Notes: generated by a model from the sequence alone, not told the origin. A stretch of 64,000 bases of DNA from an uncultured Candidatus Saccharibacteria bacterium (GCA_964506305.1 CAZDKD010000001.1:8031-72030), one strand, 5' to 3'; shown: positions 8,850 to 41,032, counted from the first letter of the stretch. Numbers and translations: made by a program.

Positions 8850-9033
8850 AATTCACCTCATTTCTTTTTAACTTATTAAAGATCTAATTAATTTCCTTAT
8901 CGAGCTTATATTATTTTGTCTTTTTTGTCAATTATTAAAGTTGACAAATTTTGTTATTATGTTAAAGTTCAGCAGTAAATTGTTTTTTGAAAATTGAATA
9001 ATTAAAAACTAAGTTTAAGAAAAGGAGAACGAA

Positions 9034-10104
9034 ATGAGTATTTCTGACAGGGTAAAATTGACTGATATGACGAGAAGCAGAGGAAGAGGAGTAATTGAAA
9101 AACTGTATCGAATGTTTTATTTGCAGGGACCAGGCGCTGGAACGTTTCTAGGGCTTCCTTTTGACCAGTTGGTTGAACACGGGCCCGGCCACGAATTTAA
9201 ATGGGAACATTGCGCTAAACCACGGTCAGTAATAGAATTAGCCAATCGGGGCAGAGAATATTTTTCAGCTCTAGTGTTATCCATAGGCCAGGCTCAGAAG
9301 TATCAGCACGATATTGACCATGCTATTCCCTTGATAGTAAAATTGGACGGTCATTTCTATACCGGCAAAGCTAACCAAGTTAATTATCCCCGGCACACTA
9401 TGTTTGGTTCGGTAGAAGATGCTTTGAAAATGGGAGCTTGTGCTGTAGGATTGAGTTTTTATCTGGGTTCAGAGCAAACCGGAGAAGACGTAGAAAGAAT
9501 AGCTTTTATAAGAGAGGAAGCTCACAATAACGGTTTGCCTCTGGTTTTATGGAGTTATCCTCGAGGACCTTTATTCGATACTATTCAGGCAAATAGTTTA
9601 TTGTCTTGCCATTACGCTGTTTCGGCTGCCGAGTCGTTAGGAGCTGATGTGGTAAAAACAAAATTTCCTAGCGTGGTCGCGCCAAAGTGCAGGGATGCCT
9701 ATGAGAAATTTATCAAAGAAGAATATTCTAAAAAGATCCCCGAGGCAACTAGGTATCTGGAGTTTGAGCCCGGAAAGAAAAAATTAGCAGCTTACGAAAA
9801 AAGAATGGAAGAAAAAGATAAAAATCCGAATTTTGATTCTCTTCTTGACAGGGCCCGGCATATTGAAAGAGCAAGAATAGTTGTCAGAGCCGCAACCAGA
9901 ACATTTGTAATATTTTCCGGAGGGCCCAGAACAACAGGTAGTGCAAAATCTGATTTAACCAAAAGTACTGAGATAATTATGGAAGCAGACGGCGAGGGAA
10001 GAATTATTGGCAGAAACCTCTGGGGAATCCCGGTTGAAGAAGGTCTTAAATTAGCGAAAGCTGTAACTGAGGTTATGCAAAAGGACGGATTTAAGAGATG
10101 GTGA
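9034..10104 (+). CDS. fbaB: class I fructose-bisphosphate aldolase, DhnA/FbaB type
   Basis: Blocks LPFDQLVEHGPG, IPLIVKLDGH, VEDALKMGACAVGLSFYLGSE, LVLWSYPRG, LGADVVKTK align with E. coli FbaB (350 aa). Confidence 0.8.
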   Translation: MSISDRVKLTDMTRSRGRGVIEKLYRMFYLQGPGAGTFLGLPFDQLVEHGPGHEFKWEHCAKPRSVIELANRGREYFSALVLSIGQAQKYQHDIDHAIPLIVKLDGHFYTGKANQVNYPRHTMFGSVEDALKMGACAVGLSFYLGSEQTGEDVERIAFIREEAHNNGLPLVLWSYPRGPLFDTIQANSLLSCHYAVSAAESLGADVVKTKFPSVVAPKCRDAYEKFIKEEYSKKIPEATRYLEFEPGKKKLAAYEKRMEEKDKNPNFDSLLDRARHIERARIVVRAATRTFVIFSGGPRTTGSAKSDLTKSTEIIMEADGEGRIIGRNLWGIPVEEGLKLAKAVTEVMQKDGFKRW

Positions 10105-10120
10105 ATTTTTTAAAAACAAA

Positions 10121-10148
10121 AAGCGCCCCGTCAAGACGGAGCGCTTTT
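10121..10148 (+). terminator. intrinsic terminator
   Basis: AAGCGCCCCGTC-aa-GACGGAGCGCTTTT; near-identical copy at 16384-16413. Confidence 0.65.
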
Positions 10149-10152
10149 ATTC

Positions 10153-10180
10153 TTGACAAGACTTCATCGCTTGCTAAAAT
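10153..10180 (+). promoter_or_regulatory. U1 promoter TTGACA-16-TAAAAT
   Basis: ttgacaagacttcatcgcttgctaaaat. Confidence 0.5.
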
Positions 10181-10381
10181 AAAAGTAGTTCTTTGTTTTG
10201 TAAAAGAGAAGAGAGCCTTTTCAAAAACTTATTAAGATCAGGTTTAAGAGGGATTTACTCCCTATTATTTGTGGTGAATTTGAAAAATTGTTGATTCACA
10301 GCTCCCTCTATTTTGAGGTAAAATGAGCTCAAAAGTTTAAAAATTCTATTTACAGGCTCTCTTCTCTCTATTTGCTCTTTT

Positions 10382-10406
10382 AAAGAGGCTTAATTTAAGC
10401 CTCTTT
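10382..10406 (+). terminator. U1 terminator
   Basis: AAAGAGGCTTAA-t-TTAAGCCTCTTT. Confidence 0.5.
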
Positions 10407-10410
10407 GTTC

Positions 10411-10439
10411 TTGACAGATTCTTTTGATTGTCTTAGAAT
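10411..10439 (+). promoter_or_regulatory. U2 promoter TTGACA-17-TAGAAT
   Basis: ttgacagattcttttgattgtcttagaat. Confidence 0.5.
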
Positions 10440-10580
10440 AAAGGAAGTTTTGTGATAGAAAAGAGAGTCCCTGAAGAAAATTTTTGTGAAAAGAGTAAGG
10501 ATACTCATATCTCCTTTCTTTTTTAACCGGGAACTCGTTGTTTCCATCTTCATACTCTCTTCTCTTTCTTTTGTTCTTTC

Positions 10581-10609
10581 AAAGACCCCGCCTTGGCAGG
10601 GTCTTTTTT
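10581..10609 (+). terminator. U2 terminator
   Basis: AAAGACCCCGCC-ttgg-CAGGGTCTTTTTT. Confidence 0.55.
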
Positions 10610-10644
10610 AAATCAACTAGCAGGGGGACCGGGTTTTTTAAACC

Positions 10645-10672
10645 TTGACAAGATTTTTTAATTATGTAATAT
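10645..10672 (+). promoter_or_regulatory. U3 promoter TTGACA-16-TAATAT (near-identical to U5 promoter)
   Basis: ttgacaagattttttaattatgtaatat vs ttgacaagattttttaattatgctaaggt at 11289. Confidence 0.5.
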
Positions 10673-10848
10673 AAAAATTAGTTGTTTTAAAATATAAATA
10701 TTCCGGAAAGTTGGGGCTAGTCCTCCAATAGCAGGGCAGCGGTTTCGTCGGAAGACCGTGGTAAGAAGCTGGCGCGCTTATATTTGTGCCAGTCAACCCG
10801 CTAACAACTAGTTGGCAAACAATTTTTCAAGAAAGAAAGGTGGCTATT

Positions 10849-11043
10849 ATGAATAGTCCGATGAGTCCAAGAGGCCCGATGGGTCCGATGACAGCGAATA
10901 ATCTCTCGAATTGCCTTCAAGCTACGAAGGGTCCAATAATTCGTAAGAACTCTGCTGTCTACCAAGATGTAATTGGAAGAAGCCAGAAGATTCGTTTGAT
11001 GCCGGGTGAGGCCCAAGTGCTAAGGATGAAGTACGGTAAGTAG
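10849..11043 (+). CDS. 65-aa ORF with good RBS whose C-terminus resembles sigma-70 region 4.1 but lacks the 4.2 HTH
   Basis: RBS GAAAGGTGG 7 nt before ATG; ...IRLMPGEAQVLRMKYGK stop, compare RpoD LTAREAKVLRMRFG; may be fragment or decoy; weak. Confidence 0.2.
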   Translation: MNSPMSPRGPMGPMTANNLSNCLQATKGPIIRKNSAVYQDVIGRSQKIRLMPGEAQVLRMKYGK

Positions 11044-11065
11044 GCATGAAAATGCCAATAAGCAA

Positions 11066-11096
11066 AACGGAAGAGAAAATTCTCTTCCGTTTTTTA
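11066..11096 (+). terminator. U3 terminator
   Basis: AACGGAAGAGA-aaat-TCTCTTCCGTTTTTT. Confidence 0.55.
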
Positions 11097-11112
11097 TTAT
11101 TGAAGTTGAAGT

Positions 11113-11140
11113 TGACAATTTTTTTGGTTGTATTAAGATA
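11113..11140 (+). promoter_or_regulatory. U4 promoter TTGACA-16-TAAGAT
   Basis: ttgacaatttttttggttgtattaagat. Confidence 0.45.
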
Positions 11141-11288
11141 AATTCGTTTAAATATTATTGAGGGAGGGGAGTCCATTTCTAAGGGGGCGCTATCGCTACG
11201 GCTGCCTAATCTCCCTTTCCTCTATATTGTTCTTTTAAAGTTGAAAGGAGAGAGAAAATAAACCTTCAGCTAAAAAGTGCAATAGGGG

Positions 11289-11317
11289 TTGACAAGATTT
11301 TTTAATTATGCTAAGGT
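11289..11317 (+). promoter_or_regulatory. U5 promoter TTGACA-17-TAAGGT
   Basis: ttgacaagattttttaattatgctaaggt. Confidence 0.4.
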
Positions 11318-11545
11318 GTATTTATTGGATTTCATTATATATACAGTAAGAGGAAAGAGAACCTCTGGGATGTGAGACCTGATGGCAACCCGAAAGAAGT
11401 CCAAACAGGGCAATTCTATATTCTCTTTCCTCTACTTGTTAGTTCTTTATACCAATGCTTTTCATGGATGATGAGAGAGTTGCTTAATGGATTAAGTAAT
11501 TGGACTCGCTTTTTTAAAAAAAAGCGAGCCGACCAATTTACATTT

Positions 11546-11563
11546 TGCGAATGCGCGCATTCG
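11546..11563. repeat. perfect 18-bp palindrome GCGAATGCGCGCATTCGC
   Basis: Self-complementary; GC-rich island in AT-rich spacer; candidate operator or hairpin. Confidence 0.5.
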
Positions 11564-11599
11564 CCACTGCTATGCTCTCTTTCACATCCTTTATTCTTT

Positions 11600-11630
11600 A
11601 AAGACCCAAAACAATTTGGGTCTTTTCTTT
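11600..11630 (+). terminator. U5 terminator
   Basis: AAAGACCCAAA-acaa-TTTGGGTCTTTTCTTTTTT. Confidence 0.55.
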
Positions 11631-11817
11631 TTTCAAGAAATATATTAAGATAAATAAGACACGGGAAAAGAGAGTTTTGAAGACAAAATTAAAAGTTAAT
11701 ATCGGCTCTTCGTCTACAACGTTCTCAATGGTGAAACTTGTACATTTTTAAGCATGGAAACTCGTTGTTTCCAACTTCATACTCTCTTTTCCATTTATAG
11801 TTCTTTTGAGCCTAATT

Positions 11818-11836
11818 TTATTAGGCTCTTTTTTTT
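11818..11836 (+). terminator. U6 terminator
   Basis: GAGCCTAAT-ttt-ATTAGGCTCTTTTTTTT, runs directly into U7 -35. Confidence 0.5.
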
Positions 11837-11863
11837 GACAAATTTTCTGGTTTGATTTAAGAT
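11835..11863 (+). promoter_or_regulatory. U7 promoter TTGACA-17-TAAGAT for S8 peptidase gene
   Basis: ttgacaaattttctggtttgatttaagat. Confidence 0.5.
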
Positions 11864-11971
11864 GGGCCTACCTAAACACCGTCAAGGAAAGAAAGTTCCT
11901 ACCTTCGTCGCTGCGGCTGGTATACTCTCTTTCCTCATTTATTGTTCTTTAAAAATTGAAAGGGGATAGGA

Positions 11972-13093
11972 ATGTTTATCAAACAGAAATTTTTTCAAAA
12001 GGGTATGCTTGTTTTTGCTTTTTTATTGGAGGCTATTAATTTGTGCGGATGTACTAGAAATAAGAAGCCCAAAAGAAAAGTAGTTGTATTTGTGCTGGAT
12101 AGCTTTATAGAAGAAGAGAGCCACGGCGAGCTCGTGGCGGATATAATTGAAGAGAAATCTCTTTCTAAGTGTGAGATAAAAATTATAGATGTTTTCTTTT
12201 CAATAGGAGCAAAAAAGAACAAATATTTAAAGGCCTTAGCAGATGTTTCGGATTATGCAGATAAGCATCCGAATGAAGCAATTGTGGTGAATATAAGTTT
12301 GTGCAGCAAGAATTATAATCTATTAGAGCATTTAATGATTTCAGAGCTTTATGAAAAAGGAGTGATAGTTGTAGCTGCGGCGGGTAATGACGCTACTTCT
12401 AATAGGCGATATCCGGCAGCTTATAGAGAGACAATAGCGGTTGCTGCTTTACATTGGAAAAGGAAAGCTGATTATTCTAACTATGGCAGTCATATTGATT
12501 TAGCTACGTCTGGTTTTGGAAGCGAAAAGTTATTGAAAAAAGAAACATCTGGAGGAGGCCTTTTTATAGAGGAAACGAAGTATTACAGCGTAAGAGGCGG
12601 AACATCGTTTGCAACGCCAAGAGTTGCTGGCTTAATCGCTTATTTATTAAGGCAGAGGCCAGAGCTAAGCCCTAGAGAGATAGTTCATCTTGTAAAAGAA
12701 AATGCTACTCCTGTAAAGGACAAATTTGGGCGTTGTGGACTATTAGGCGCGAGAATCAATCCTTACGGCACTATCTTTGCTGTTGATCCTGTTTACCAAC
12801 GAGCCCTCGTTTTTCAAATTGCTTCCATTGTTGCAGTGTTAATTTTTTGGATTTTTTGCGATAGATTCTTTGATGCCAATGGCGGATTATTTTTTACAGG
12901 TTTGTTGCTATTCGGATTATTGCTAATAGCAGCAAATATTATTCTTATTCAGGCCTGGAATATCATATACGGCACTATTGCAGGCAGCACATTAATTTTA
13001 TTGGCTGGTCTTTGCCTTCCCATGATGTACTCTTTTAATAAAAAGAAAAAAGAAAAGGAAAAAATGGAAAGGCTTGGCGAATTTGAAACTTAA
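11972..13093 (+). CDS. subtilisin-like serine peptidase (S8) with C-terminal membrane anchor
   Basis: Asp block VVFVLDS, His block SHGELVADII, Ser block GGTSFATPRVAG; C-terminal TM helices. Confidence 0.8.
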   Translation: MFIKQKFFQKGMLVFAFLLEAINLCGCTRNKKPKRKVVVFVLDSFIEEESHGELVADIIEEKSLSKCEIKIIDVFFSIGAKKNKYLKALADVSDYADKHPNEAIVVNISLCSKNYNLLEHLMISELYEKGVIVVAAAGNDATSNRRYPAAYRETIAVAALHWKRKADYSNYGSHIDLATSGFGSEKLLKKETSGGGLFIEETKYYSVRGGTSFATPRVAGLIAYLLRQRPELSPREIVHLVKENATPVKDKFGRCGLLGARINPYGTIFAVDPVYQRALVFQIASIVAVLIFWIFCDRFFDANGGLFFTGLLLFGLLLIAANIILIQAWNIIYGTIAGSTLILLAGLCLPMMYSFNKKKKEKEKMERLGEFET

Positions 13094-13121: not shown

Positions 13122-13203
13122 ATTTTAGCTTGAAAATAACCCAAAAAAGAGTTAGATTAAAAGTGGAAAAATTTCTTAAAAACTCAAATAATAAAATAAA
13201 AAC

Positions 13204-13716
13204 ATGAACATAACTTTAATTGGTATGGCAGGTGTAGGTAAAAGTTCTGTAGGAAAAAAGTTGGCAAAAAAATTAAACTATAAGTTTCTGGATATAGATA
13301 AAATAATTGAAAAGAGGACCAAGTTAAGGTTGCAACAAATAATAGATAATTTTGGAGAGGACAGGCTTTTAAAGATTGAAGAAGAAATGATTTTAGGATT
13401 AGGCGAACTTAATAATTGTATAATCTCTCCAGGAGGCAGTGCGATATATTCAACAAAAGCAATGGAAGCTCTTAAGAAAAAATCTGTTATTGTTTTTTTG
13501 AATACCCCATTTAAAAACATAGAAAGAGTGATTACAGAACGAGAGAAAAAAACGAGAGGGATTGTTGGATTAAAAAAGAAAAGCTTAAAAGCTCTTTTTA
13601 ACGAAAGGTTGGTCCTTTATCGGAAATATGCAGATGTAGTGGTAGAAATATCAGAAAGGTTTAACGCTAAGTTTATTATAAAAGACATAATTCAAAAGAT
13701 AACTCATATAAGTTAA
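13204..13716 (+). CDS. aroK: shikimate kinase
   Basis: Walker A GMAGVGKSSVGKKLA, DID..IEKR, ISPGGS pattern of shikimate kinases. Confidence 0.7.
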   Translation: MNITLIGMAGVGKSSVGKKLAKKLNYKFLDIDKIIEKRTKLRLQQIIDNFGEDRLLKIEEEMILGLGELNNCIISPGGSAIYSTKAMEALKKKSVIVFLNTPFKNIERVITEREKKTRGIVGLKKKSLKALFNERLVLYRKYADVVVEISERFNAKFIIKDIIQKITHIS

Positions 13717-13734
13717 ACCCGAGATAGAAAAATC

Positions 13735-13763
13735 AAAGACCCCGCCAAGGCGGGGCCTTTTTT
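13735..13763 (+). terminator. intrinsic terminator (GC hairpin family)
   Basis: AAAGACCCCGCC-aa-GGCGGGGCCTTTTTT. Confidence 0.65.
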
Positions 13764-13765
13764 AA

Positions 13766-13841
13766 TTGACAAACTCCTAATTCTGTGATATTTTTCATTA
13801 GTGATTAAATGTTCATTTAAAATTTAGAAAGGAGATAGAAA
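13766..13841 (+). promoter_or_regulatory. conserved promoter+5'UTR cassette R5 copy A (TTGACAAACTCCTAATTCTGTGATATTTTTCATTAGT.ATTAAAT.GTTC.TTTAAAA...GGAGAT)
   Basis: -35 TTGACA, extended -10 TGTGATATT, AT-rich UTR, SD GGAGAT; four near-identical copies (13766, 14875, 16419, 17100). Confidence 0.55.
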
Positions 13842-14831
13842 ATGAAAAAGATGATAGAGGTAGGTATTGTAGGATTTGGCAATGTTGGGCGAGGTGTTTT
13901 TAAGGCAGTTGAAAAGAATTCGGACATGGAAGTAGGTGCAATTTTTACACGAAGGCCGGATGTGGTCCGCAAAGAATTAAAAGGGGTTTTTGTTTTTGAC
14001 ACAGAACAAGCTTTTTATACTCCCGGTGCTAGGATTGATGTGATGATTCTTTGTGGGGGATCAAAAGAAGATTTACCGGTTCAGGGGCCAAAGTTTGCCC
14101 AAAAATTTAATACTGTTGACAGTTTTGATACCCATGATGACATTCCTGATTATTTTGAGGCAATGAAACTTTGTTCCGAAGAGGGAAACAACGTATCTGT
14201 TATTTCTGCCGGCTGGGATCCGGGAATTTTTTCTTTAGAGAGAGTTTTTGGAGACGCTTTTCTTCCTCTGGATAATAAAACGTATACTTTTTGGGGAAAG
14301 GGCGTTAGCCAAGGGCATTCGGACGCAGCAAGAAAAGTGAACGGCGTAGCGGACGCCAGGCAATATACGATTCCCTTAGAGAATAGCTTGGAGAAAGTAA
14401 GAAAAGGGGAGAGCCCCACTTTTACCAAGAGGCAAATGCATAAGCGCCTTGTTTACGTTGTTCCTGAAGAAGATGCAGACTTGGAAAGCATTGAAAAGAG
14501 TATAGTATTAATGCCTAATTATTTTAACGAGTATGATACAGAGGTAGTTTTCATTAGTAAAGAAGAAATGAAGAAGAGTCATAGCGATTATACCCATGGA
14601 GGTTTTGTTTTAACATCAGGGGAAACAGGGGAAGGAAATAATCAAATACTGGAATACAAGTGCCATTTGGAAAACAACCCCGAGTTTACAGGAAGTGTTT
14701 TAGCGGCTTGTGCAAGAGCTGCCTCTAAATTAAACAGAGTGGGGAGGAGAGGAGCTTTTACTATGTTAGATATTCCTCCTTGCTATTTAAGCCCCCATTC
14801 TTCATCTTTTTTAAGAAAGAAATTTATGTGA
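13842..14831 (+). CDS. ddh: meso-diaminopimelate D-dehydrogenase
   Basis: Near-colinear match to Corynebacterium Ddh: GIVGFGNVGRGV, DVMILCGGS, GWDPGIFS, TFWGKGVSQGHSDA, RQMHKRLVYVV, NPEFTG, GAFTMLDIPPCYLSP. Confidence 0.85.
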   Translation: MKKMIEVGIVGFGNVGRGVFKAVEKNSDMEVGAIFTRRPDVVRKELKGVFVFDTEQAFYTPGARIDVMILCGGSKEDLPVQGPKFAQKFNTVDSFDTHDDIPDYFEAMKLCSEEGNNVSVISAGWDPGIFSLERVFGDAFLPLDNKTYTFWGKGVSQGHSDAARKVNGVADARQYTIPLENSLEKVRKGESPTFTKRQMHKRLVYVVPEEDADLESIEKSIVLMPNYFNEYDTEVVFISKEEMKKSHSDYTHGGFVLTSGETGEGNNQILEYKCHLENNPEFTGSVLAACARAASKLNRVGRRGAFTMLDIPPCYLSPHSSSFLRKKFM

Positions 14832-14844
14832 TTTAACAATCTTT

Positions 14845-14873
14845 AAGCCCGAGAAAATTCCCGGGCTTTTTTT
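14845..14873 (+). terminator. intrinsic terminator
   Basis: AAGCCCGAG-aaaatt-CCCGGGCTTTTTTT. Confidence 0.6.
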
Positions 14874-14874
14874 A

Positions 14875-14944
14875 TTGACAAACTCCTAATTCTGTGATAT
14901 TTTTCATTAGTAATTAAATAGTTCTTTAAAAAAGGAGATTGATT
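14875..14944 (+). promoter_or_regulatory. promoter+5'UTR cassette R5 copy B
   Basis: ttgacaaactcctaattctgtgatatttttcattagtaattaaatagttctttaaaaaaggagatt, 96% identical to copy A. Confidence 0.55.
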
Positions 14945-15208
14945 ATGAATGACAAACAGATATATCTAGTTATTGGGCTTATTATTTCAACTCTTATATT
15001 TGGTATGGGAGTAAACGCTATAGACAGCACAGTTTCTTCCATGGCAACAAAAAGCCCTGAATCATTAGAAGGTGTAGCAGAAACCTTATTTTTTAAGACA
15101 AGCTTTTCTTTTCAATATCACCTTGGTATGGTTCTGGTTTTCGTTAGCTTTATTTTAACTATCGGAATAATGTTGTGGTATTTTCAGAAAAAACCTACTA
15201 AAGAATAA
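14945..15208 (+). CDS. small membrane protein (start moved to ATG 7 nt after GGAG; track used upstream TTG)
   Basis: Two hydrophobic helices; MNDKQIYLVIGLIIS... Confidence 0.4.
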   Translation: MNDKQIYLVIGLIISTLIFGMGVNAIDSTVSSMATKSPESLEGVAETLFFKTSFSFQYHLGMVLVFVSFILTIGIMLWYFQKKPTKE

Positions 15209-15226
15209 AAATAGAAAGGAGAAGTC

Positions 15227-15847
15227 ATGTTTAAGAAAATTGATTTAGCTGTATTGTGTTTATTGTTAATGATTGCTGGGTGTGCTCAGTATGATGCAAC
15301 AAGTAATGTTAACGCTTATAGCAAGCTGCGTATATCTGAAGTCCGTTTTCCTCCTCCCGTAGGGTCTGTTTCTAATATTTCCTTAGGGCCTATTTCTTTA
15401 GGCTTTGGAGATTCTTCAGTAGAGGGCTATACAAGAGGGTGGTTTGTGATGTCCCAAGGCGGATATGGAGGTAGTTATATCACAACATCCCCCTTAGAAG
15501 GCATTCATTTAGCGTGTACATACAACGGTTTAAGCTTTATCAAAATAGGATGGGGTTGGAAGGGATCGACAGACAGAGGAATAAAGCTGGGTTCAACGAA
15601 AAAAAAGGTTAAAAAGGCTTATCCGGAAACAACCTCTGATTTCCTTGGTAATTTAGTATGGAAAATAGACAAAATAGATAACTCTGTGCCAGATAGTCCG
15701 GCCAAGTGGTGCGTAAGAGACCAAATAACCTTTGAGTTTATATTTGATAGGCTTTCTGGTATAAGAATAAACAGAAAAAAAGGCTATATTTATAAGGGAA
15801 AATTTACAATGGATTTTCAAAAAGTAGCTTCTGGGACGGATTGGTAA
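15227..15847 (+). CDS. putative lipoprotein
   Basis: Signal peptide with LMIAGCAQ lipobox; RBS AGGAGAAG. Confidence 0.5.
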   Translation: MFKKIDLAVLCLLLMIAGCAQYDATSNVNAYSKLRISEVRFPPPVGSVSNISLGPISLGFGDSSVEGYTRGWFVMSQGGYGGSYITTSPLEGIHLACTYNGLSFIKIGWGWKGSTDRGIKLGSTKKKVKKAYPETTSDFLGNLVWKIDKIDNSVPDSPAKWCVRDQITFEFIFDRLSGIRINRKKGYIYKGKFTMDFQKVASGTDW

Positions 15848-15856
15848 TAGCTTTAT

Positions 15857-15885
15857 AAGGCCCAACTTATGTTGGGTCTTTTTTA
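15857..15885 (+). terminator. intrinsic terminator
   Basis: AAGGCCCAAC-ttat-GTTGGGTCTTTTTT. Confidence 0.55.
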
Positions 15886-15896
15886 TTGCCTCCTAC

Positions 15897-15960
15897 TCCG
15901 TCCCGCTGAAAGCGGGACGGGGTTTATTATGCGACAGAGGTTTCGGGGAAATTTTGGATT
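15897..15960 (+). repeat. GC hairpin (GTCCCGC-tgaaa-GCGGGAC) + TTATTATGCGACAGAGGTTTCGGGGAAA element; second copy at 17016-17085
   Basis: 17016: CCCCTGCCCCCGCGGGGGCAGGGG then GTTATTATGCGACAGGGATTTTAGGGAAA. Confidence 0.45.
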
Positions 15961-16014
15961 GATTTTTGCTTAGAAAAGAGTTAGGGTGGAAAATAGAAAT
16001 AAAAAACAAAAACT

Positions 16015-16332
16015 ATGAATGAATTAAATGATCAAAATTTTGAAGAAGAAGTTATAAAAAGCGAAAAACCGGTTTTAGTGGATTTTTGGAGTCCAACCTG
16101 TCCTCCTTGTGTAATATTAGGGCCAATTATTGAGGAGATTGCTAAAGATTTTGAAGGGAAGGCAAAGGTTGGAAAATTAAATGTGATGGAAAACCCAGAA
16201 ACTGCTGGAAAATATAAAATTGTTGGCATTCCAACTATTATCATTTTCAAAAATGGAGAACCAATAGAAAGAGCAACCGGACTGCGCCCCAAAGAGGCAA
16301 TCGCAGATAAACTTAATTCTATAATATCCTAA
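16015..16332 (+). CDS. trxA: thioredoxin
   Basis: VLVDFWSPTCPPC active-site region (CxxC), KYKIVGIPTIIIFKNGEP. Confidence 0.75.
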   Translation: MNELNDQNFEEEVIKSEKPVLVDFWSPTCPPCVILGPIIEEIAKDFEGKAKVGKLNVMENPETAGKYKIVGIPTIIIFKNGEPIERATGLRPKEAIADKLNSIIS

Positions 16333-16383
16333 GCCACGGAAGGATGTTTAAAACTCCGTAAAAATTAAACCAATAATATCAAA

Positions 16384-16413
16384 AAACGCTCCGCCAAGAC
16401 GGAGCGCTTTTTG
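16384..16413 (+). terminator. intrinsic terminator (copy of 10121 terminator)
   Basis: AACGCTCCGCC-aa-GACGGAGCGCTTTTT. Confidence 0.65.
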
Positions 16414-16418
16414 TTTTA

Positions 16419-16497
16419 TTGACAAATTCATAATTTCGTGATATTTTTCACTAGCGTATTAAACAAACAGTTCTTTGAAAATTGAAAGGAGATTGAA
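16419..16497 (+). promoter_or_regulatory. promoter+5'UTR cassette R5 copy C (more diverged)
   Basis: ttgacaaattcataatttcgtgatatttttcactagcgtattaaacaaacagttctttgaaaattgaaaggagattgaa. Confidence 0.5.
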
Positions 16498-16965
16498 ATG
16501 CTTATAGATTGTGCAATTACTCTTGGGTCTGTTCAATCCGTCCTAGACAGAGGTGTGGATGGAATCACAATAATCTTACTCCTACTTTGTTTCATCGTTT
16601 TATTTGGCCTAATGTTTCTAAGCTTCTTTACAGGGTTGATTTCTGATCTAAAATCTCGCTGGCTAGATGATGAACATTTGGCGGGCATAGTAATTGGATC
16701 TTCTCTTCAAGCACTTGCCTCGCTTATTTTATTTGTATATTTTACAGAAATGGGCAGAGAGTTTTTTCAATCGATTGAAGTTTTTGGTATACTTACATTG
16801 TTTGGATTCCTCGTTTTAGGGAGTTTACTTCTTACACCAATTGCGGTCATAAATGTATTACTTTACCTTATAGGAAGGTTTTTGCGATATACTGTTTATT
16901 TTTCCGGAAAATTTCTTAGCCGGGGAAAGAAAAATAAAAGATGGGCCAGATGTCAAGTAAGATAA
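16498..16965 (+). CDS. integral membrane protein, unknown function
   Basis: 4 predicted TM helices. Confidence 0.4.
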   Translation: MLIDCAITLGSVQSVLDRGVDGITIILLLLCFIVLFGLMFLSFFTGLISDLKSRWLDDEHLAGIVIGSSLQALASLILFVYFTEMGREFFQSIEVFGILTLFGFLVLGSLLLTPIAVINVLLYLIGRFLRYTVYFSGKFLSRGKKNKRWARCQVR

Positions 16966-16979
16966 GTGAGCATTTATCA

Positions 16980-17008
16980 AAAGACCCAAAATAATTTGGG
17001 TCTTTTTT
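16980..17008 (+). terminator. intrinsic terminator
   Basis: AAAGACCCAAA-ataa-TTTGGGTCTTTTTT. Confidence 0.6.
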
Positions 17009-17099
17009 ATTCCCCTGCCCCCGCGGGGGCAGGGGAAGGATGTTATTATGCGACAGGGATTTTAGGGAAACCCTGGGTTGAATTTCGCTCAAAAAAGAA

Positions 17100-17170
17100 T
17101 TGACAAACTCATTTTTTTGTGATATTTTTCAGTAGGTATTAAATAGTTCTTTAAAAAAAGGAGATAGGAA
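17100..17170 (+). promoter_or_regulatory. promoter+5'UTR cassette R5 copy D
   Basis: ttgacaaactcatttttttgtgatatttttcagtaggtattaaatagttctttaaaaaaaggagatagga. Confidence 0.55.
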
Positions 17171-17812
17171 ATGTTAAAAAAAAGAGTAATTAGCGGCGCA
17201 GTGCTTATATTGTTGTTAATTGGCATGTTTTTTATAGGAAAACCCTGGTTTTACCTGTTATTGACGGTTATTACTGCTTGGGGGATAAGAGAAATTTGGC
17301 TGGTTAATAAGAATAAGCATGAGACAAAGGTTTCTTTTTACCTTTTCTTTATTCTGCCGGCTCTTTACCTTTTCTTCTCGCTTTTTTGGGTAGTTGGCGA
17401 GTTGCGGTGGGGAAGTAACATCTGGTGGCTTATTTCAGCGCTTATTGGAACTTCAGCTTATGACACCCTGGCTTATTTTATCGGTAAAAGCATAGGAAGG
17501 AATAAGATTACGCCAAAGACGAGCCCAAACAAAACATGGGAAGGAACAATGGGTGGCTTTTTAGGCCCGGTTTTAACTGTTGCGATAATAGGAAGATATT
17601 TTCTCTTTCTGAATTGGTTTGAAATAGCAGTTTTTTCTTTAATGATAGGAGTTTTAGCTTTTTTAGGGGATCTTATGGTCTCTTGGTATAAAAGAAGATT
17701 AGGAGTAAAAGACATAGGACATATTATTCCTGGTCATGGAGGTTTGCTTGATAGAATAGATAGTCATCTCCTTGTTTTTTTAGGAGTTTTTTGCTTTCAG
17801 GCGATGATTTAA
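17171..17812 (+). CDS. cdsA: phosphatidate cytidylyltransferase
   Basis: C-terminal signature SWYKRRLGVKDIGHIIPGHGGLLDRIDS. Confidence 0.75.
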   Translation: MLKKRVISGAVLILLLIGMFFIGKPWFYLLLTVITAWGIREIWLVNKNKHETKVSFYLFFILPALYLFFSLFWVVGELRWGSNIWWLISALIGTSAYDTLAYFIGKSIGRNKITPKTSPNKTWEGTMGGFLGPVLTVAIIGRYFLFLNWFEIAVFSLMIGVLAFLGDLMVSWYKRRLGVKDIGHIIPGHGGLLDRIDSHLLVFLGVFCFQAMI

Positions 17813-17918
17813 AAATCAAAGACTCAGCATAAGTTGGGTCTTTTTTATTATAAATTAGCTTGAGTTTTGCTTAAAAAAGAGTTAGTGTGAAAAATAAGAA
17901 AATTTATTTTATAAATCT

Positions 17919-19313
17919 ATGAAAAATCTTTGGATACTTTCAGAAGAACGGCCGAAGAAAGAAGTTATTGGTCAGATTGTAAGAAAGTTTGCTTCAGATA
18001 ATGATCTAAAAATTAAAATCAAGGATATTATAATATTACCCGTTTTTTCTGATAAAAAATTTGTATTTAGATATATTATTAAAGGCATAAATTGTAAAAA
18101 GATAAAAGATATATTTGTTAAATTGGTTAGTGGTAAATCAAGTTTCATCGATTTTTTATTATTCTATCAAGAGAAAGAACCCGATAAAGATTCTAATCCT
18201 TTGTATGCAATAGAAGAAACAAAAACGGATGATTCAGAATCGAGAAACACAGGTGTATACCAAAGATGTAGTAAATTTGTTTTTATTGATTTTTATTATC
18301 CAAAAATAAAAAAGCTAATGCTTTACAATTTACAAATACCTCAAAAAATAAAGGCGACAGAAACAAATATTTTTGGCACCAGGATGCTTTTAACTATTGG
18401 TGTAGAAATTTTAGGCAAGAAACTTGACGATTCTGTTATGAAACCCTTTAGAAGTATTGATGAACTTATCAAGTTTAAAGATTCGATGCGCATGCCTCCA
18501 AAAGGAAATGTGCCGATTAAAATCAAGAAAGAAAAAAATAAATTTTTCATCTCTGGTAAATTATATAAAGCAGGTGGCCTAAGCCATGATCCTAATATTG
18601 GAGCATTAACAATAATTGCGCTTTGCATTAGAAAATGGGAAAAGAAAAAGGATATTGTTATTACTAATCATGGCTTAAAACAAAATCACATTGGAAGAAA
18701 AAATAAATTTATTATTATCGCGAACAAACTTAACATAAAACTGCAAGGATTAAAATTGCCAAAAGCAAAAATAGAACAGCCCTATTGGCACTATGAAGTT
18801 AATGGTGAGAAAGTGGCCTCTATTTTTGTGCATTTAGCAGTCGAGGCATTTACTAATGGACAAATTATTTATGAAAATCATGCTGGCTGTGAAAGAGGTT
18901 ATTTTATTGATAAAAAATTAGGACCAATTGCGATAAAAAAATATAAAAAAGGAAAAAGATCCAAGTATAAGGCAGGCAATAAAAATGCGATTATTTATTT
19001 ACCAGATCTTATCATTTGTGATCCAAAAAGAAATGAGATTGTTAATATCGAAGGCAAAACTTATAGTAAACGCAAACAAGGTATTAGTGAATTAAAAAAT
19101 TACACCTATATCGAGAAAGAATATATAAAGCCGTCTTATCGATCATCAAGGATAAAAAGAGTTGTTGTAGTTTTTGGAGGGGGAAAGAATAAAATTAAAG
19201 AAAATAAAATAGCCTTTATGCTGAACGATAAAGGCGAGATTATCTTAGGTAAAAATCCTCCTGAAATAATAAAAGAAGCAGTAAAAAAACTATTTTCGTT
19301 GCAGAATAAATAG
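17919..19313 (+). CDS. Lys-rich PD-(D/E)XK-motif protein, candidate restriction endonuclease convergent on two adenine methyltransferases
   Basis: Textbook motif IIYLPDLIICDPKRNEIVNIEGK (PD-x14-E-G-K); no other recognisable domain. Confidence 0.35.
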   Translation: MKNLWILSEERPKKEVIGQIVRKFASDNDLKIKIKDIIILPVFSDKKFVFRYIIKGINCKKIKDIFVKLVSGKSSFIDFLLFYQEKEPDKDSNPLYAIEETKTDDSESRNTGVYQRCSKFVFIDFYYPKIKKLMLYNLQIPQKIKATETNIFGTRMLLTIGVEILGKKLDDSVMKPFRSIDELIKFKDSMRMPPKGNVPIKIKKEKNKFFISGKLYKAGGLSHDPNIGALTIIALCIRKWEKKKDIVITNHGLKQNHIGRKNKFIIIANKLNIKLQGLKLPKAKIEQPYWHYEVNGEKVASIFVHLAVEAFTNGQIIYENHAGCERGYFIDKKLGPIAIKKYKKGKRSKYKAGNKNAIIYLPDLIICDPKRNEIVNIEGKTYSKRKQGISELKNYTYIEKEYIKPSYRSSRIKRVVVVFGGGKNKIKENKIAFMLNDKGEIILGKNPPEIIKEAVKKLFSLQNK

Positions 19314-20354
19314 TTGTTCTTTTACCGCTTTTTTATGTTTTGAATCACCGTTATTGTTACTTTTAAATCTTGGATAATCTATTTCGATCACTTTTAGATT
19401 TCCGTATTTATTTAATACGGAAACTATTTTTTTCTGAGGCATGATGCCTTCTGAATTGTAGCTTAGAATTAGGAATTTATACCTTGCGCTTCTTGCAATC
19501 CTGTTGAGGGCAGAAAGTGCAGACTCTGGATTGCAGAATTCTGATTTTTGCTTATTATAATTCCTCATTCCTGTTTTGCCCTTGATTTTTGGATTATCAT
19601 ATTTTGCGATCGTTTCCAGCAGATGATAATTACTAGCATATTGCCTGTTATTGTAGGGAGGGTCTATATATAGAATATCAACATCCAAATTATCTATAAG
19701 CTCCATGCTATCTTTATTAAAGACAGAGTGTTTTTTGTTGCTTTTATATATTCTTATGGGTCTTATTTTGAATTTTTTTAAGGCTCTTGGGTCATAATTT
19801 TTTAGAAAAGCAGCATAAACACCGGATATATTTGCATAAAAGGGGACGCTTCCTATTAAGGATGCAAGCAATATAAAATATTCATTTTTATCAATCAGTT
19901 TTGTTTTTTTCCATTCTTTTATTTGTGTTCTTATCGCGTCAATTTTCATTCCATTCTTAGCAGTAAAATATTTTCTTTGAAATTTGTCATTCTTTGTTCC
20001 TTCTTCTGTATAGTTTTTATAAATAAAGCCCTTAGTTTCCTTTAGGTTATTCAAATAATCTTGAACTAATTCTAATGACGAAACAAAAAAGCTATTTTTT
20101 GGTAGTGGGACAATCTTATCTAATAATCTTTGGAAGCTTGGCTCTTTATTGTTTTGGATATATGCCTTTTGTAAAATATAAGAGAAATACAAAACATCAG
20201 AGGAAATGATCCTGAATCCTTTTTGCTTAAAAAATCTGCCGACACTACTTGTTCCTGAAAAAAAATCGCAGAATATTCCTTCTGTTGTGCCGGTTGATAT
20301 TACTGCTTGATATATATAATCAAGCAGTTTTTCTTTACTGCCTATAAACCTCAT
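19290..20354 (-). CDS. D12-class N6-adenine DNA methyltransferase (second MTase of the pair)
   Basis: N-terminus MRFIGSKEKLLDYI, SAM-binding region FCDFFSGTSSVG, catalytic ILYIDPPYNN. Confidence 0.75.
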   Translation of the reverse strand: MRFIGSKEKLLDYIYQAVISTGTTEGIFCDFFSGTSSVGRFFKQKGFRIISSDVLYFSYILQKAYIQNNKEPSFQRLLDKIVPLPKNSFFVSSLELVQDYLNNLKETKGFIYKNYTEEGTKNDKFQRKYFTAKNGMKIDAIRTQIKEWKKTKLIDKNEYFILLASLIGSVPFYANISGVYAAFLKNYDPRALKKFKIRPIRIYKSNKKHSVFNKDSMELIDNLDVDILYIDPPYNNRQYASNYHLLETIAKYDNPKIKGKTGMRNYNKQKSEFCNPESALSALNRIARSARYKFLILSYNSEGIMPQKKIVSVLNKYGNLKVIEIDYPRFKSNNNGDSKHKKAVKEQLFILQRK

Positions 20355-20355
20355 T

Positions 20356-21924
20356 TTAATAATTTGTGATAAGTAGTTCTGAAACTTTTCCTCGTTTGTC
20401 TTTTTTACAATTTAGAGACCTATTTGATAACATTTCATGTATTTTATAGTTGTGATATAAATTATTTATAAATTTGCAATCTGAATTAGATAGCATTATC
20501 TTAACTTTCTTTTTAGTAAGTTTATCTATAGCTTTTTTTAGTCTTTCTTGGTCTTCTTTATAGAATTTTTCTTTTGTATATCTATTAAAGTCTGAGTATT
20601 TTGAAACAGGGAAATAGGGGGGATCTAGATAGATAAAATCATCTTTATTAGCTTCTTCTAGAATTTTTTCGAAGTCTGCGCATTTTATACTTGTATTTTC
20701 TAAAACTTGGCTTACTTTTTGGATATTGTCCTTATCACAAATTAATCTATTGAGAGAACTCCCAATAGGCACATTAAATTGTCCTTGTTTATTAACCCTA
20801 TATAAAGCATTGAATCCTGTTTGGTTCAAATAAATCATTCTTGCTGCTATCTCGGCGTTATTTAATTTATCAAAGATATTTATTTCTCTATCTAGGTTAC
20901 GAACTTTTATATGGAGATCTTTTGAATGTCTTATTTTTAGTCCTCTTAATAGTTTAGCCACCCGTTCCGGATTATCTCTAACGCCCTGATAAGTTTTAAT
21001 CAATTCAGCGTTATTATCTCTCAAAACTGCTTTAGATGGTTTTAGATAAAAAAACATCGCCCCTCCTCCAAGAAAGGGCTCGTAATAAGTTTTGAACTTT
21101 TTAGGTAGGAATTTTTTATATTGAGAAATCATTTCTCTTTTTCCTCCTACCCATTGAAGAAATGGTTTCGCTTCCCTGTTTGCAGATGAACCGTTTAAGC
21201 GCTTTGCGTTTTTAGTAAATGGAGAGGCATTAATTATTTTAGTAAGCGGACTATTTTCTTTTAACTGTGATTCAAGGCTTCTTATAATTTCTACAACAAT
21301 TCCTTTTACTTCTACTTCCTTTCTGAAAATGGGGAACAGTGTTGGATTCGCCGGTTGTAATCTTATCCTGTTTTTTTCGTGATATATTTTTTTAAGAGTT
21401 GCCTCGTTGTCATCAATAATAGCTACTATTGTTTGTCCATCTTCAGCTGTTTGTTGTTCTTGGATTATAACTATATCTCCGTCAAAGATACCTTCTCCAA
21501 TCATGCTATCGCCTTCTACTCTTAAGGCGTAATGTTTAGTATGATTGTTAATTTGTTTTCTGGGAACGGTAATTACTTCATCTGGAATTTCAAAAGTCTC
21601 AAATGGTTTACCGGCTGCTATTATTCCAAGTAGGGGAATTTCTACTAGACCTGCAGGTTTTTTATTATCTGATATTTCTATTGATCGGGCGTGATAGTTG
21701 GTTTTATTTAGATATCCTTTGGATTTTAGTGATTCAATATGCTGGTGGACAGTGGATACAGAAGACAATTTAAAATGCTCCTTTATTTCCTCTAGGGAAG
21801 GAGCATAATCATTTTTTTTAATGAATTTTGTAATATAATCTAGTATTTGTTTTTGCCTTTTTGTTAACATAATTTGGGTTAAGAGTTTTCCACAACCTTG
21901 ACGGGTTGACCTAGTTTTCCCCAT
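20356..21924 (-). CDS. LexA repressor (wHTH + S24 peptidase) fused in-frame to a Dam-family N6-adenine DNA methyltransferase
   Basis: LexA: DBD LTKRQKQILDYI...SSVSTVHQHIESLKSKGYL, cleavage site GIIAAGKPF, Ser EGDSMIG, Lys EATLKKIY; Dam: LQWVGGK, EPFLGGGAMFF, LNQTGFNALYRVNKQGQFNVPIG, FIYLDPPYFP, IMLSNSD; single 522-aa ORF, stop overlaps start of next MTase. Confidence 0.75.
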   Translation of the reverse strand: MGKTRSTRQGCGKLLTQIMLTKRQKQILDYITKFIKKNDYAPSLEEIKEHFKLSSVSTVHQHIESLKSKGYLNKTNYHARSIEISDNKKPAGLVEIPLLGIIAAGKPFETFEIPDEVITVPRKQINNHTKHYALRVEGDSMIGEGIFDGDIVIIQEQQTAEDGQTIVAIIDDNEATLKKIYHEKNRIRLQPANPTLFPIFRKEVEVKGIVVEIIRSLESQLKENSPLTKIINASPFTKNAKRLNGSSANREAKPFLQWVGGKREMISQYKKFLPKKFKTYYEPFLGGGAMFFYLKPSKAVLRDNNAELIKTYQGVRDNPERVAKLLRGLKIRHSKDLHIKVRNLDREINIFDKLNNAEIAARMIYLNQTGFNALYRVNKQGQFNVPIGSSLNRLICDKDNIQKVSQVLENTSIKCADFEKILEEANKDDFIYLDPPYFPVSKYSDFNRYTKEKFYKEDQERLKKAIDKLTKKKVKIMLSNSDCKFINNLYHNYKIHEMLSNRSLNCKKDKRGKVSELLITNY

Positions 21925-24065: not shown

Positions 24066-24152
24066 AACGCAAAACTAAACGCAAAACTAAACTCGGTTTA
24101 GTTTTAAGAGTGAGAAGTCGTTGACGACAGTCGTCAACGAAAATCAAAAAAT
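24066..24152. repeat. composite palindromic repeat R1 copy a: (ACGCAAAACTAA)x2-ACTCGGTTTAGTTTTAAGAGTGAGAAG-TCGTTGACGACAGTCGTCAACGA-AAATCAAAAAATT
   Basis: Two perfect hairpins (AAACTAAAC-tcg-GTTTAGTTT; TCGTTGACGAC-a-GTCGTCAACGA); copies at 25385, 28465(partial), 29465, 31378(partial). Confidence 0.6.
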
Positions 24153-24164
24153 TGATTGAGAAAT

Positions 24165-24999: not shown

Positions 25000-25043
25000 A
25001 CTCCCCGCCGAGGCGGGGCGGGCAAAGATAATTAAAATTTTTT

Positions 25044-25379
25044 ATGGAAAATATTAAACTTCTACCAAAAACTAAATTAGGCAAATGGTCGGTTGGATTG
25101 ATAATCGCTATGTTCTCATTATTTTTTCTTGGCATGTCATTTTTTCTAAAAGTATATACATCTGTTTCAGCAGGAGAAACTATTTTAAAAGATATTGTTG
25201 CAAGGCCGTGTTTAGCGTTATCGATGCTTTCTGGCTTTGCTTCCGGTATCATTGCTTTTATCACGGGGCTTACTGCGATTATAAAAAATAAAGAAAGGTC
25301 TATTTTGGTGTTTATCGCAACAATTATTGGTGCCTTGCTTATTTTATTCCTTACGGCAGAAATAACATCCCCGCATTAA
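25044..25379 (+). CDS. membrane protein, paralog 1 (96% nt identity to 29119-29457)
   Basis: 3 TM helices; MENIKLLPKTKLGKWSVGLIIAMFSLFFLGMSFF... Confidence 0.5.
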   Translation: MENIKLLPKTKLGKWSVGLIIAMFSLFFLGMSFFLKVYTSVSAGETILKDIVARPCLALSMLSGFASGIIAFITGLTAIIKNKERSILVFIATIIGALLILFLTAEITSPH

Positions 25380-25384
25380 ACAAT

Positions 25385-25458
25385 CACAAAACTAAACTCG
25401 GTTTAGTTTTAAGAGTGAGAAGTCGTTGACGACAGTCGTCAACGAAAATCAAAAAATT
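25385..25458. repeat. composite palindromic repeat R1 copy b
   Basis: aaaactaaactcggtttagttttaagagtgagaagtcgttgacgacagtcgtcaacgaaaatcaaaaaatt identical to copy a core. Confidence 0.6.
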
Positions 25459-25662
25459 AATAAAGATTATAGAATGTAAAAAAGAAGAAAATATAAAAGA
25501 TTGCCCATGTACTTATGATTGCGACAAAAAGGGAATGTGTTGCGAATGTGTAAAATATCATTTAGAAAGAAGAGAGCTGCCGGCTTGCTTTTTTTCTAAG
25601 GAAGCGGAAAAGACCTTTGACCGTTCAATTGAAAAATTCATAGAAGATCAAAAAAGTTTATG
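25430..25662 (+). CDS. cysteine-rich small domain protein (CPCxYxC...CCxCVxYH...PAC), no canonical in-frame start codon; stop overlaps mscS start (ATGA)
   Basis: Frame open from 25430; ...KDCPCTYDCDKKGMCCECVKYHLERRELPACFF...; only in-frame ATG is internal (MCCECV...); R1 repeat sits exactly where the start should be. Confidence 0.35.
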
Positions 25663-40993: not shown

Positions 40994-41032
40994 AAAGAAG
41001 CCCGAGTTAATTTATTTTCTCGGGCTTTTTAA
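40994..41032. terminator. bidirectional intrinsic terminator
   Basis: AAGAAGCCCGAG-ttaatttattttct-CGGGCTTTTT. Confidence 0.55.

Follow-up and report, generated by a model that had tools for sequence, protein, structure and literature searches.

Four copies of a promoter–leader module before unrelated genes of an uncultured Candidatus Saccharibacteria bacterium

The four cassettes and their transcription units

The DNA analyzed here, a stretch of 64,000 nucleotides (nt) from an uncultured Candidatus Saccharibacteria bacterium (GCA_964506305.1, CAZDKD010000001.1:8031-72030; hereafter the window, with positions counted from its start), contains four promoter/leader cassettes of 70-79 nt each. 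The cassettes, found by direct reading of positions 13500-17400, all lie on the + strand within 3.4 kb and precede (i) ddh, (ii) a unit encoding a membrane protein of 87 amino acids (aa) and a 206-aa protein, (iii) a gene for a 155-aa membrane protein, and (iv) cdsA. Each of them opens with TTGACA, 1-2 bases past the T-run of the preceding terminator, and closes at the ATG of the gene that follows. A repeat finder groups the four into a single four-copy family (D2), and their common unit is a module of 53-58 nt that extends from the −35 box through the leader motif GTTCTTT. A 32-nt core, TTGACAAAYTC-N4-TT-N2-GTGATATTTTTCA, has exactly four matches in the window, against none expected from shuffled sequence. 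The G+C content of the source DNA is 35%. A preliminary description of this DNA had placed such cassettes before ddh, two membrane-protein genes and cdsA; this was confirmed, the gene calls hold and the products are non-homologous.

Cassette c1 (13766-13841) carries its −35 box, TTGACA, at 13766-13771, the dinucleotide TG at 13786-13787 and the −10 hexamer TATTTT at 13789-13794; its predicted start (approx. 13800) is followed by a degenerate form of the leader motif, GTTCATTT (13811-13818), by GGAG (13831-13834) and by the ATG of ddh at 13842. With the family profile described below, c1 was recovered by nhmmer at E values of 1e-11 to 1e-19. In c2 (14875-14944), which precedes the two-gene unit, the −35 and −10 elements are placed at 14875-14880 and 14898-14903, the predicted start at approx. 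14909, GTTCTTT at 14921-14927, GGAG at 14934-14937 and the ATG at 14945. Cassette c3 (16419-16497; −35 at 16419-16424, −10 at 16442-16447), located before the 155-aa gene, represents a "long" subtype with CGTATTAAACAAAC; here the predicted start lies at approx. 16453, GTTCTTT at 16470-16476, GGAG at 16488-16491 and the ATG at 16498. The corresponding elements of c4 (17100-17170), before cdsA, are a −35 box at 17100-17105, a −10 hexamer at 17123-17128, a predicted start at approx. 17134, GTTCTTT at 17146-17152, GGAG at 17160-17163 and the ATG at 17171.

A consensus promoter scan reports all four cassettes as TTGACA/17/TATTTT with TG at −15/−14. The features of sigma-70 extended −10 promoters (a −35 box, a spacer of 17 ± 1 nt, TG, and T−12/A−11/T−7) are present in every one of them, and these positions are invariant in 8/8 members of the family. 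The cassette promoter therefore reads as a housekeeping, sigma-70-type extended −10 promoter, TTGACA-17 nt-TGnTATTTT. The preliminary description had recognized both a −35 box and an extended −10 element, and these stand; the −10 sequence that it proposed (TGTGATATT), however, is not the best fit, which is TATTTT with TG. The predicted start, 6-7 nt past the −10 hexamer, falls inside TCAnTAG and leaves an AU-rich leader of 35-45 nt, which contains ATTAAA, the motif (A/T)AGTTCTTTAAAA and a strong Shine-Dalgarno (SD) sequence, AAAGGAGAT, 6-7 nt ahead of the ATG.

At least seven independent metagenome assemblies (sediment metagenomes of the Joint Genome Institute) share an identical sequence at this locus, which indicates that the repeats are not an assembly artefact. 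Among eight assemblies of the same population the cassettes are invariant, and the only differences (two indels and two substitutions) are confined to coding regions; these assemblies are therefore uninformative about ongoing conversion.

The genes behind the cassettes have little in common at the level of sequence. The first, ddh (13842-14831, + strand), encodes a meso-diaminopimelate (DAP) dehydrogenase of 329 aa (Pfam DAPDH_C, E = 1e-65), and the last, cdsA (17171-17812, +), a phosphatidate cytidylyltransferase of 213 aa (CTP_transf_1, E = 7e-48). The intervening products, (i) the 87-aa membrane protein with its hydrophobic segments (14945-15208, +; first gene of the c2 unit), (ii) the 206-aa protein, which has a lipoprotein-type signal ending in LMIAGC (15227-15847, +; second gene of the c2 unit), and (iii) the 155-aa multi-pass membrane protein (16498-16965, +), have no Pfam match. 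All-against-all blastp of the five products detected no homology (best E = 0.3), and their Pfam families differ or are absent. The trx gene (16015-16332) also lies within this series, and its promoter differs from the module found in the cassettes (module A).

A terminator scan combined with direct reading revealed that every transcription unit of the series is flanked by terminators, all of them on the + strand. The intrinsic terminator of aroK (13735-13764) adjoins c1, and a terminator-like hairpin with a T-run after ddh (14845-14873) adjoins c2; the latter was identified by direct reading, since a mismatch in its stem kept it from being listed by the automatic scan. Further terminators follow the 206-aa gene (15857-15886, with a second GC-rich hairpin at 15895-15923), trx (16380-16413, adjoining c3), the 155-aa gene (16980-17009, likewise read directly, a member of repeat family D16, with a second GC-rich hairpin at 17010-17037) and cdsA (17818-17849). 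The claim that each cassette drives a monocistronic gene with its own terminator thus needs correction in one respect: there is no terminator between the 87-aa and 206-aa genes, and the c2 unit is therefore not monocistronic.

Distinctness of the module and its leader motif

The four copies of the module share 76-94% identity over 53-58 nt (c1-c2 94%, c2-c4 87%, c1-c4 83%, c3-c4 81%, c2-c3 78%, c1-c3 76%), while complete cassettes share 76-85%. The near-identity asserted in the preliminary description is consequently a property of the promoter half, the leader being conserved more loosely, and the 65-nt sequence that it quoted as recurrent occurs a single time (14875-14939), even when three mismatches are allowed. 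Between c1 and c2, direct reading found one substitution from TTGACA to ATTAAAT, with all 17 spacer nucleotides identical. For comparison, the first 53 nt of the 19 other intergenic promoters of the window with a perfect TTGACA box have a mutual identity of 58.3 ± 6.3% (maximum 79%), and their identity to the cassettes averages 56% and never exceeds 66%. The pair responsible for the 79% value comes from a small promoter family, TTGACAAGATTTTTTAATTATG, located at 10645, 11289 and 43174.

For profile searches we combined the window, approx. 10 kb past each of its ends (obtained through the end genes of the window, which brings the coverage of the source genome to 84 kb) and seven loci of relatives, 187,649 nt in all. 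An nhmmer profile of the four copies, and subsequently one of eight members, matched the family alone at full length; the 8-member profile recovered those eight members only (E ≤ 5e-10), the next match having an E value of 0.39. In the source genome there are four copies in the 84 kb examined, all inside the 3.4-kb region and none in the added flanks, which does not agree with a generic promoter standing before most genes, the finding that by the preliminary account would have disproved its proposal. The three more diverged versions of the cassette that the preliminary description had proposed, at 8941, 30508 and 34633, are not members of the family: the first gave an nhmmer match at 8968-8998 with an E value of 7.4, the second and third gave no match, and the resemblance of all three to the cassettes, 66% at most, falls inside the background range. 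What they have in common with the cassettes is limited to generic sigma-70 hexamers and, in two cases, the widespread leader motif. Scans of three public collections, in which the source and its close relatives are absent, yielded no additional copies. With the pattern TTGACA-N14-GTGATATTTTTCA there were 13 matches among genome contigs and 39 among metagenome contigs, isolated chance occurrences with flanks unlike the cassette, and two family-level patterns had no matches in viral contigs.

Across the eight members TTGAC, TG, TATTTTT, a few A/T positions past the start and AGTTCTTT are invariant, and the 17-nt spacer varies freely.

The 3′ third of the cassette has a different distribution. 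The leader motif, whose clade-wide form is (A/T)(A/T)GTTCTTTAAAA, contains GTTCTTT, which occurs 90 times in 188 kb; 38 of these occurrences are in the 18.7% of the DNA that is intergenic (an approx. 3-fold enrichment). At 24 sites GTTCTTT lies no more than 60 nt upstream of an ATG on the same strand, behind many different promoters, which indicates that this part of the cassette is a standard leader of the clade and is not specific to the module. Its commonest placement is 22-30 nt upstream of the ATG, as GTTCTTT-A(3-7)-GGAG, and it is also found after structured RNAs, just ahead of terminators. A LexA-type box related to the GTTC of the leader was considered, given the LexA-methyltransferase fusion gene nearby (see below), and rejected, as inspection revealed no GAAC-N4-GTTC arrangement.

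The leader motif could be a NusG-type pause signal or an AU-rich translational enhancer comparable to the T7 gene 10 leader (PMC8748333). NusG-dependent pausing in Bacillus subtilis is associated with TTNTTT in the non-template strand, located between −11 and −6 relative to the pause; in the fmnP riboswitch of this bacterium it is TTCTTT itself, and approx. 300 of 1,600 NusG pauses map to 5′ leaders (PMC11602163). The former possibility arises because the sense-strand TTCTTT of c2, c3 and c4 fits TTNTTT (the TTCATTT of c1 breaks the motif), and TTCTTT is found in the window in 5′ leaders and after aptamer-like structures ahead of terminators, which are places of regulatory pauses. Unlike in the B. 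subtilis motif, conservation here reaches the upstream G and the downstream A-run. The epsilon enhancer of T7 gene 10 has the sequence TTAACTTTAAGAAGGAGATATACATATG. The likeness to it consists in an A/U-rich element of approx. 9 nt ending in CTTTAA just 5′ of a GGAGAT SD sequence, within a short unstructured leader. In contrast to epsilon, the mechanism of which is disputed, the motif of the window is also present where no SD sequence follows, and we regard the similarity as a resemblance only.

Promoter replacement among relatives and its interpretation

Loci of related genomes (L060, L063, L065, L066, L068 and others) were reached through homologues of Ddh and CdsA. The Ddh proteins of L060, L063 and L066 are 71-73% identical to that of the window, and their genes are preceded by another upstream sequence, TTGACRAAATGRTAATCTTTTGYTAYATT...GGTCTTT, which is 89-94% identical among the three and shows 55-66% identity to the cassettes of the window. 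The leader of the window ddh can be aligned with those of the relatives from TTTAAAAWTTAGAAAGG onward only, i.e. at its SD-proximal end. The presence of a different promoter in the relatives, together with a c2-type sequence at the window ddh, indicates that ddh gained the module recently. The identity of c1 and c2 points in the same direction, since it includes a spacer that is barely constrained by promoter function.

At cdsA, the CdsA identities define two close pairs of genomes, window-L068 (92.5%) and L063-L065 (94.8%), and of each pair one member has the module, namely the window and L065, while L068 and L063 lack it. In the latter two the promoters are TTGAAT-17-TAAAGT (L068) and TTGAAA-17-TAAGAT (L063), while the cdsA genes of all four genomes retain GTTCTTTAAAAAA-SD-ATG, that is GTTCTTT(T)AAAAAA-SD-ATG. 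Alignment with the intact cdsA promoter of L068 revealed a remnant of such a promoter (type B; TTGAAT with a 17-nt spacer) directly upstream of c4, at 17078-17099 on the + strand, and the TTGACA box of the module in the window and L065 occupies the former −10 site of this type B promoter, whose −35 and spacer can still be made out upstream. On this comparison, the promoter of cdsA has been replaced twice among close relatives, whether by gains or by losses.

The long subtype of the module, with CGTATTAAACARAYAGTTCTTT, precedes genes for proteins of 155 aa (window), 123 aa (L065) and 280 aa (L060 and L063), which are mutually unrelated (local alignment scores of 32 or less). The long-subtype modules of L065 and L063 are nevertheless 97% identical, and that of c3 is 86% identical to the L060 module before the non-homologous 280-aa gene; this homology is sharply bounded by TTGAC upstream and GTTCTTT downstream. 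Cassette c4 resembles its paralogues in the same genome more closely (81-87%) than the module at the equivalent position in L065 (72%), and TCAnTAG, common to the four window copies, is not found in the relatives, a pattern that is expected of copying or concerted evolution within one genome. In every relative, the small variable genes located between trx, ddh and cdsA come in a different order.

At the level of sequence, these comparisons show a distinct, low-copy and locally clustered family that has replaced other promoters at orthologous genes and is used before unrelated ones. We consider it likely that a reusable promoter-leader module, which belongs to a small uncultured clade of the Candidate Phyla Radiation (CPR)/Patescibacteria type, gave rise to the cassettes by recent local copying and promoter replacement. 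Recent copying had already been raised in the preliminary description, and the 94% identity of c1 and c2, the other ddh promoter of the relatives and the patchy occurrence of the cdsA module all agree with it. The comparison with orthologous loci that it had called for bears on the same point, as the ddh genes of close relatives lack the module and at cdsA it is present in two of four genomes.

Each module would direct strong transcription with little regulation, and efficient translation, of a single short unit that is insulated by the upstream terminator. It has overwritten, at ddh, a promoter that is still conserved in the relatives, and at cdsA rests on the type B stump. The copying probably took place through gene conversion or homologous recombination, with direct copies 0.7-1.5 kb apart as partners; the exchanged tract would extend from the terminator T-run/−35 box to the GTTCTTT motif, with both ends serving as flanking homology. 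The same repeats could mediate the gain and loss of small variable genes among trx, ddh and cdsA.

Several points weigh against recent local copying of such a module. The activity, starts and strength of the promoters are predictions from consensus. Two gains and two losses of the module at cdsA are equally parsimonious, and the direction of change is therefore ambiguous. The motif TATTTTTCAnTAG, present in the four window copies and not in the relatives, would be explained by concerted evolution or by a host-specific constraint. Further copies may exist elsewhere in the source genome, of which 84 kb were seen. Finally, the envelope theme of all four units (DAP for peptidoglycan, CDP-diacylglycerol synthesis, membrane proteins and a lipoprotein) would look like a regulon.

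The regulon explanation, in which the conserved −10/downstream sequence TGTGATATTTTTCAnTAG is an operator or an element of a dedicated sigma factor that co-regulates envelope-biogenesis genes, could draw on that theme, on a gene for a group-3-like member of the sigma-70 family at 41029-41817, and on the dyad GTGA-N6-TCAC over the −10 hexamer, which is perfect in c3. Only half of the dyad, however, is present in c1, c2 and c4, the modules of the relatives carry ATGA..TTAG or TGCT..TTAA in its place, and a search for an inverted repeat common to the four cassette promoters found none; a palindromic operator was ruled out on these grounds. Operators of the CRP/FNR or Rex type have the dyad TGTGA-N6-TCACA, and the cassettes contain no conserved dyad of this kind. 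A free spacer and a dyad that is complete in a single copy speak against an operator as well as against the specific factor or sigma reading the spacer that had been envisaged in the preliminary description; they leave an ordinary strong promoter, the −35, spacing, TG and −10 of which fit the housekeeping consensus, and whose extra identity within the genome is historical. As the close relatives have ddh and cdsA orthologues without the module and use the same module before unrelated genes, we consider co-regulation unlikely. Repeated convergence on the optimal promoter and leader of the organism would account for the abundance of near-consensus TTGACA promoters in the intergenic DNA of the window and for the wide occurrence of GTTCTTT with a strong SD sequence. 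It leaves unexplained why 19 other TTGACA promoters are merely approx. 56% identical to the cassettes, why c1 and c2 match across a functionally unconstrained spacer and why full-length profile matches are limited to four copies in 84 kb; as an explanation of the cassettes it is highly improbable, being refuted for the promoter half by these sequence comparisons and holding for the SD-proximal leader only.

It is equally worth asking whether the module is itself mobile, as a tiny transposable or self-mobilizing element whose promoter points outward, comparable to Correia, ERIC or REPIN sequences, which are likewise short repeated intergenic DNAs that give promoters to adjacent genes (as cited in PMC3575422). 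The discrete borders of the module (TTGAC to GTTCTTT) and the occurrence of a 97% identical copy before non-homologous genes of two close genomes would fit such an element. Unlike these repeats, though, the module has no terminal inverted repeats or target-site duplications, shows no high dispersed copy number within the 84 kb of source genome examined and is, at only 53-58 nt, much shorter; direct reading shows that it is flanked by a terminator T-run on one side and by the leader on the other. The lack of terminal repeats and target duplications, combined with the low copy number (just eight in 188 kb, each of them in the vicinity of trx, ddh or cdsA), speaks against a transposon-like miniature repeat, and the window locus contains no transposase or integrase; we rate a mobile element as quite unlikely. 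A structured cis-regulatory RNA (a riboswitch or an RNA thermometer in which UUCUUU pairs with AAAGGA of the SD sequence) is very unlikely. A six-pair UUCUUU:AAAGGA hairpin does appear in the minimum-free-energy folds of c2, c3 and c4 and of one unrelated leader, but it is worth only approx. −2 kcal/mol, its pairing is broken in c1, and the motif is also placed ahead of terminators, where there is no SD sequence to pair with. The leaders folded alone give −1.9 to −6.4 kcal/mol, with z-scores of −0.9 to +0.4 relative to shuffled sequences, and are essentially unstructured, i.e. they lack the stable conserved structure sequestering the ribosome-binding site that a riboswitch or thermometer would possess. 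Rfam at gathering thresholds had no match in the window. A thermometer or other hairpin sequestering the ribosome-binding site was accordingly rejected, since the hairpin is weak and the folding no better than that of shuffled sequence.

The reuse of the promoter-leader module is clear yet not unprecedented. The closest described phenomenon is that of "putative mobile promoters", highly similar upstream sequences before unrelated genes, described by Matus-Garcia, Nijveen and van Passel in 2012 and defined by at least 80% identity over at least 50 nt, located at −150 to −50 from the start codons of non-paralogous genes (PMC3575422). The pairs c1-c2, c2-c4, c1-c4 and c3-c4 reach 80%, c1-c3 and c2-c3 remain slightly under it, and the downstream genes are non-paralogous. 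The modules are nearer to the start codon (approx. −77 to −25, the cassettes extending to −1), so that the region surveyed covers their first approx. 27 nt and the definition does not apply as regards position. As with the putative mobile promoters, no known mobile element is attached, and related copies are present in other genomes (PMC3575422). In contrast to that survey, the copies span the −10 hexamer, transcription start, leader and SD sequence (−77 to −1), four of them lie in 3.4 kb, and actual replacement at orthologous loci is seen.

The locus is thus one in which stereotyped expression modules appear to be exchanged at orthologous genes between close relatives while the ribosome-binding end stays with the gene, and provides a concrete, datable case of promoter replacement. 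It also supplies native promoter, leader and ribosome-binding-site parts for the emerging genetics of CPR bacteria, and flags the clade-wide leader motif GTTCTTTAAAA as a candidate pause signal or translational enhancer. CPR bacteria have very small genomes and, to our knowledge, almost nothing is known about how their expression levels are set; a search of the literature on CPR/Patescibacteria promoters found nothing relevant. A wider reading, which we regard as doubtful, is that the intergenic DNA of the clade is assembled from a few interchangeable parts (module A, the type B module, at least two further promoter families and the GTTCTTTAAAA-SD leader) that would be swapped by recombination at fixed T-run/−35 and GTTCTTT junctions. 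GTTCTTT would then be both a recombination junction and a clade-wide signal, e.g. a NusG-type pause after every promoter or aptamer-like leader. Were this true, promoter swapping would be a main means of regulatory evolution in genomes with few transcription factors.

As to the proteins themselves, the nearest named match of CdsA, beyond a graded series of relatives, is from Candidatus Nealsonbacteria (37% identity). The CdsA of a further relative, L070 (an 844-kb contig), is 55% identical to that of the window, and ribosomal protein S2 of L070 is 77-80% identical to that of Candidatus Staskawiczbacteria. Judged from this distant relative, the clade would most likely be CPR/Patescibacteria of the Parcubacteria type. 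Ddh is more diverged among the window and the relatives (71-83%) than CdsA or Trx (81-95%), and its best named matches outside the clade, at approx. 65%, are from Dehalococcoidales and ANME-1 archaea. These sequence data suggest that ddh is a horizontally exchanged accessory gene, the promoter of which changes although its ribosome-binding site is retained.

Neighboring elements of the intergenic DNA

The promoter of trx, TTGATT-17-TAGGGT with AAAAGAGTTAG (15959-15987, + strand), belongs to type B and has sister copies at 13130-13158 (aroK) and 17860-17888 (the gene for a 464-aa protein). The pattern of the type B module, which serves these three genes, is TTGAWWWT...AAAAGAGTTAGNGTGAAA; together, modules A and B serve every one of the seven transcription units that follow one another from 13.1 to 19.3 kb. 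In the relatives (L060, L063, L065 and L068) trx, purD and further genes are preceded by the type B module. At 15924-15958 and 17043-17077, after the double terminators and just before type B promoter sequence, there is a repeated TTATTATGCGACAGRG..TTT..GGGAAA, and its related counterparts at this position in the relatives, ..CGCAGGGGAT..CGTCGTCG.., are richer in GC.

A third conserved promoter-like module, GAACCTTGATTCGCTAWWGTATAAATATATAATCTTGAATTAA, precedes several small genes of the window (at 2460, 24185, 48410, 49445 and 62348). It is also present in L060, at approx. 1270 and 18760, and in a relative it precedes a gene for an RRM-domain protein. Another repeated unit, AAAACTAAACTCGGTTTAGTTTTAAGAG, was identified at 24077-24161, 25382-25466, 28462, 29463 and 31376, as well as in the 16300-20750 region of L060. 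It is often followed by AAAATCAAAAAATTGATTAA placed right before an ATG without an SD sequence, and at least five consecutive genes of L060 start in this way; judging from their sequence, such starts may represent a different, SD-independent context of initiation. A direct repeat of 300 nt (25040-25339 and 29118-29417; 97% identical, 4 kb apart) overlaps open reading frames of 111 and 115 aa. The two copies of a 79-nt repeat (1238-1316 and 49537-49615; 84% identical) contain a palindromic core, GCAAAACA...TGTTTTGC, flanked by convergent TTGACA boxes, and may be a divergent promoter or an operator.

Upstream of the cassettes, a region of 1.9 kb that is nearly gene-free (10150-11975) contains at least five promoter-led structured RNAs without an Rfam match. 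Each of them closes with a helix of 10-12 bp, the 5′ strand of which is GA-rich and the 3′ strand CU-rich and anti-SD-like; approx. 10 nt later there is TTGTTCTTT and then a terminator or an SD sequence, an architecture resembling that of riboswitches. Their predicted folds have energies of −25 to −36 kcal/mol (z-scores of −1.5 to −4.0). Two families can be distinguished, one with a CGCTRCGGCTG core (at 11194 and at 11909, the latter being the leader of an S8 peptidase gene), and the other with GGAAACTCGTTGTTTCC...CTTCATACTCTCTT (at 10529 and 11756). The loci of relatives that were compared yielded no member of either family, and a permissive Rfam scan of 10050-12000 yielded nothing credible, the best match being PyrR with 27 bits against a threshold of 54.

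On the other side of the series, the − strand of 19290-21924 encodes a 522-aa protein in which a LexA DNA-binding domain is fused to an S24 peptidase domain and a D12-class DNA methyltransferase, and this gene adjoins that of a second D12 methyltransferase. A similar LexA-S24-methyltransferase fusion is encoded at the corresponding place in L060.

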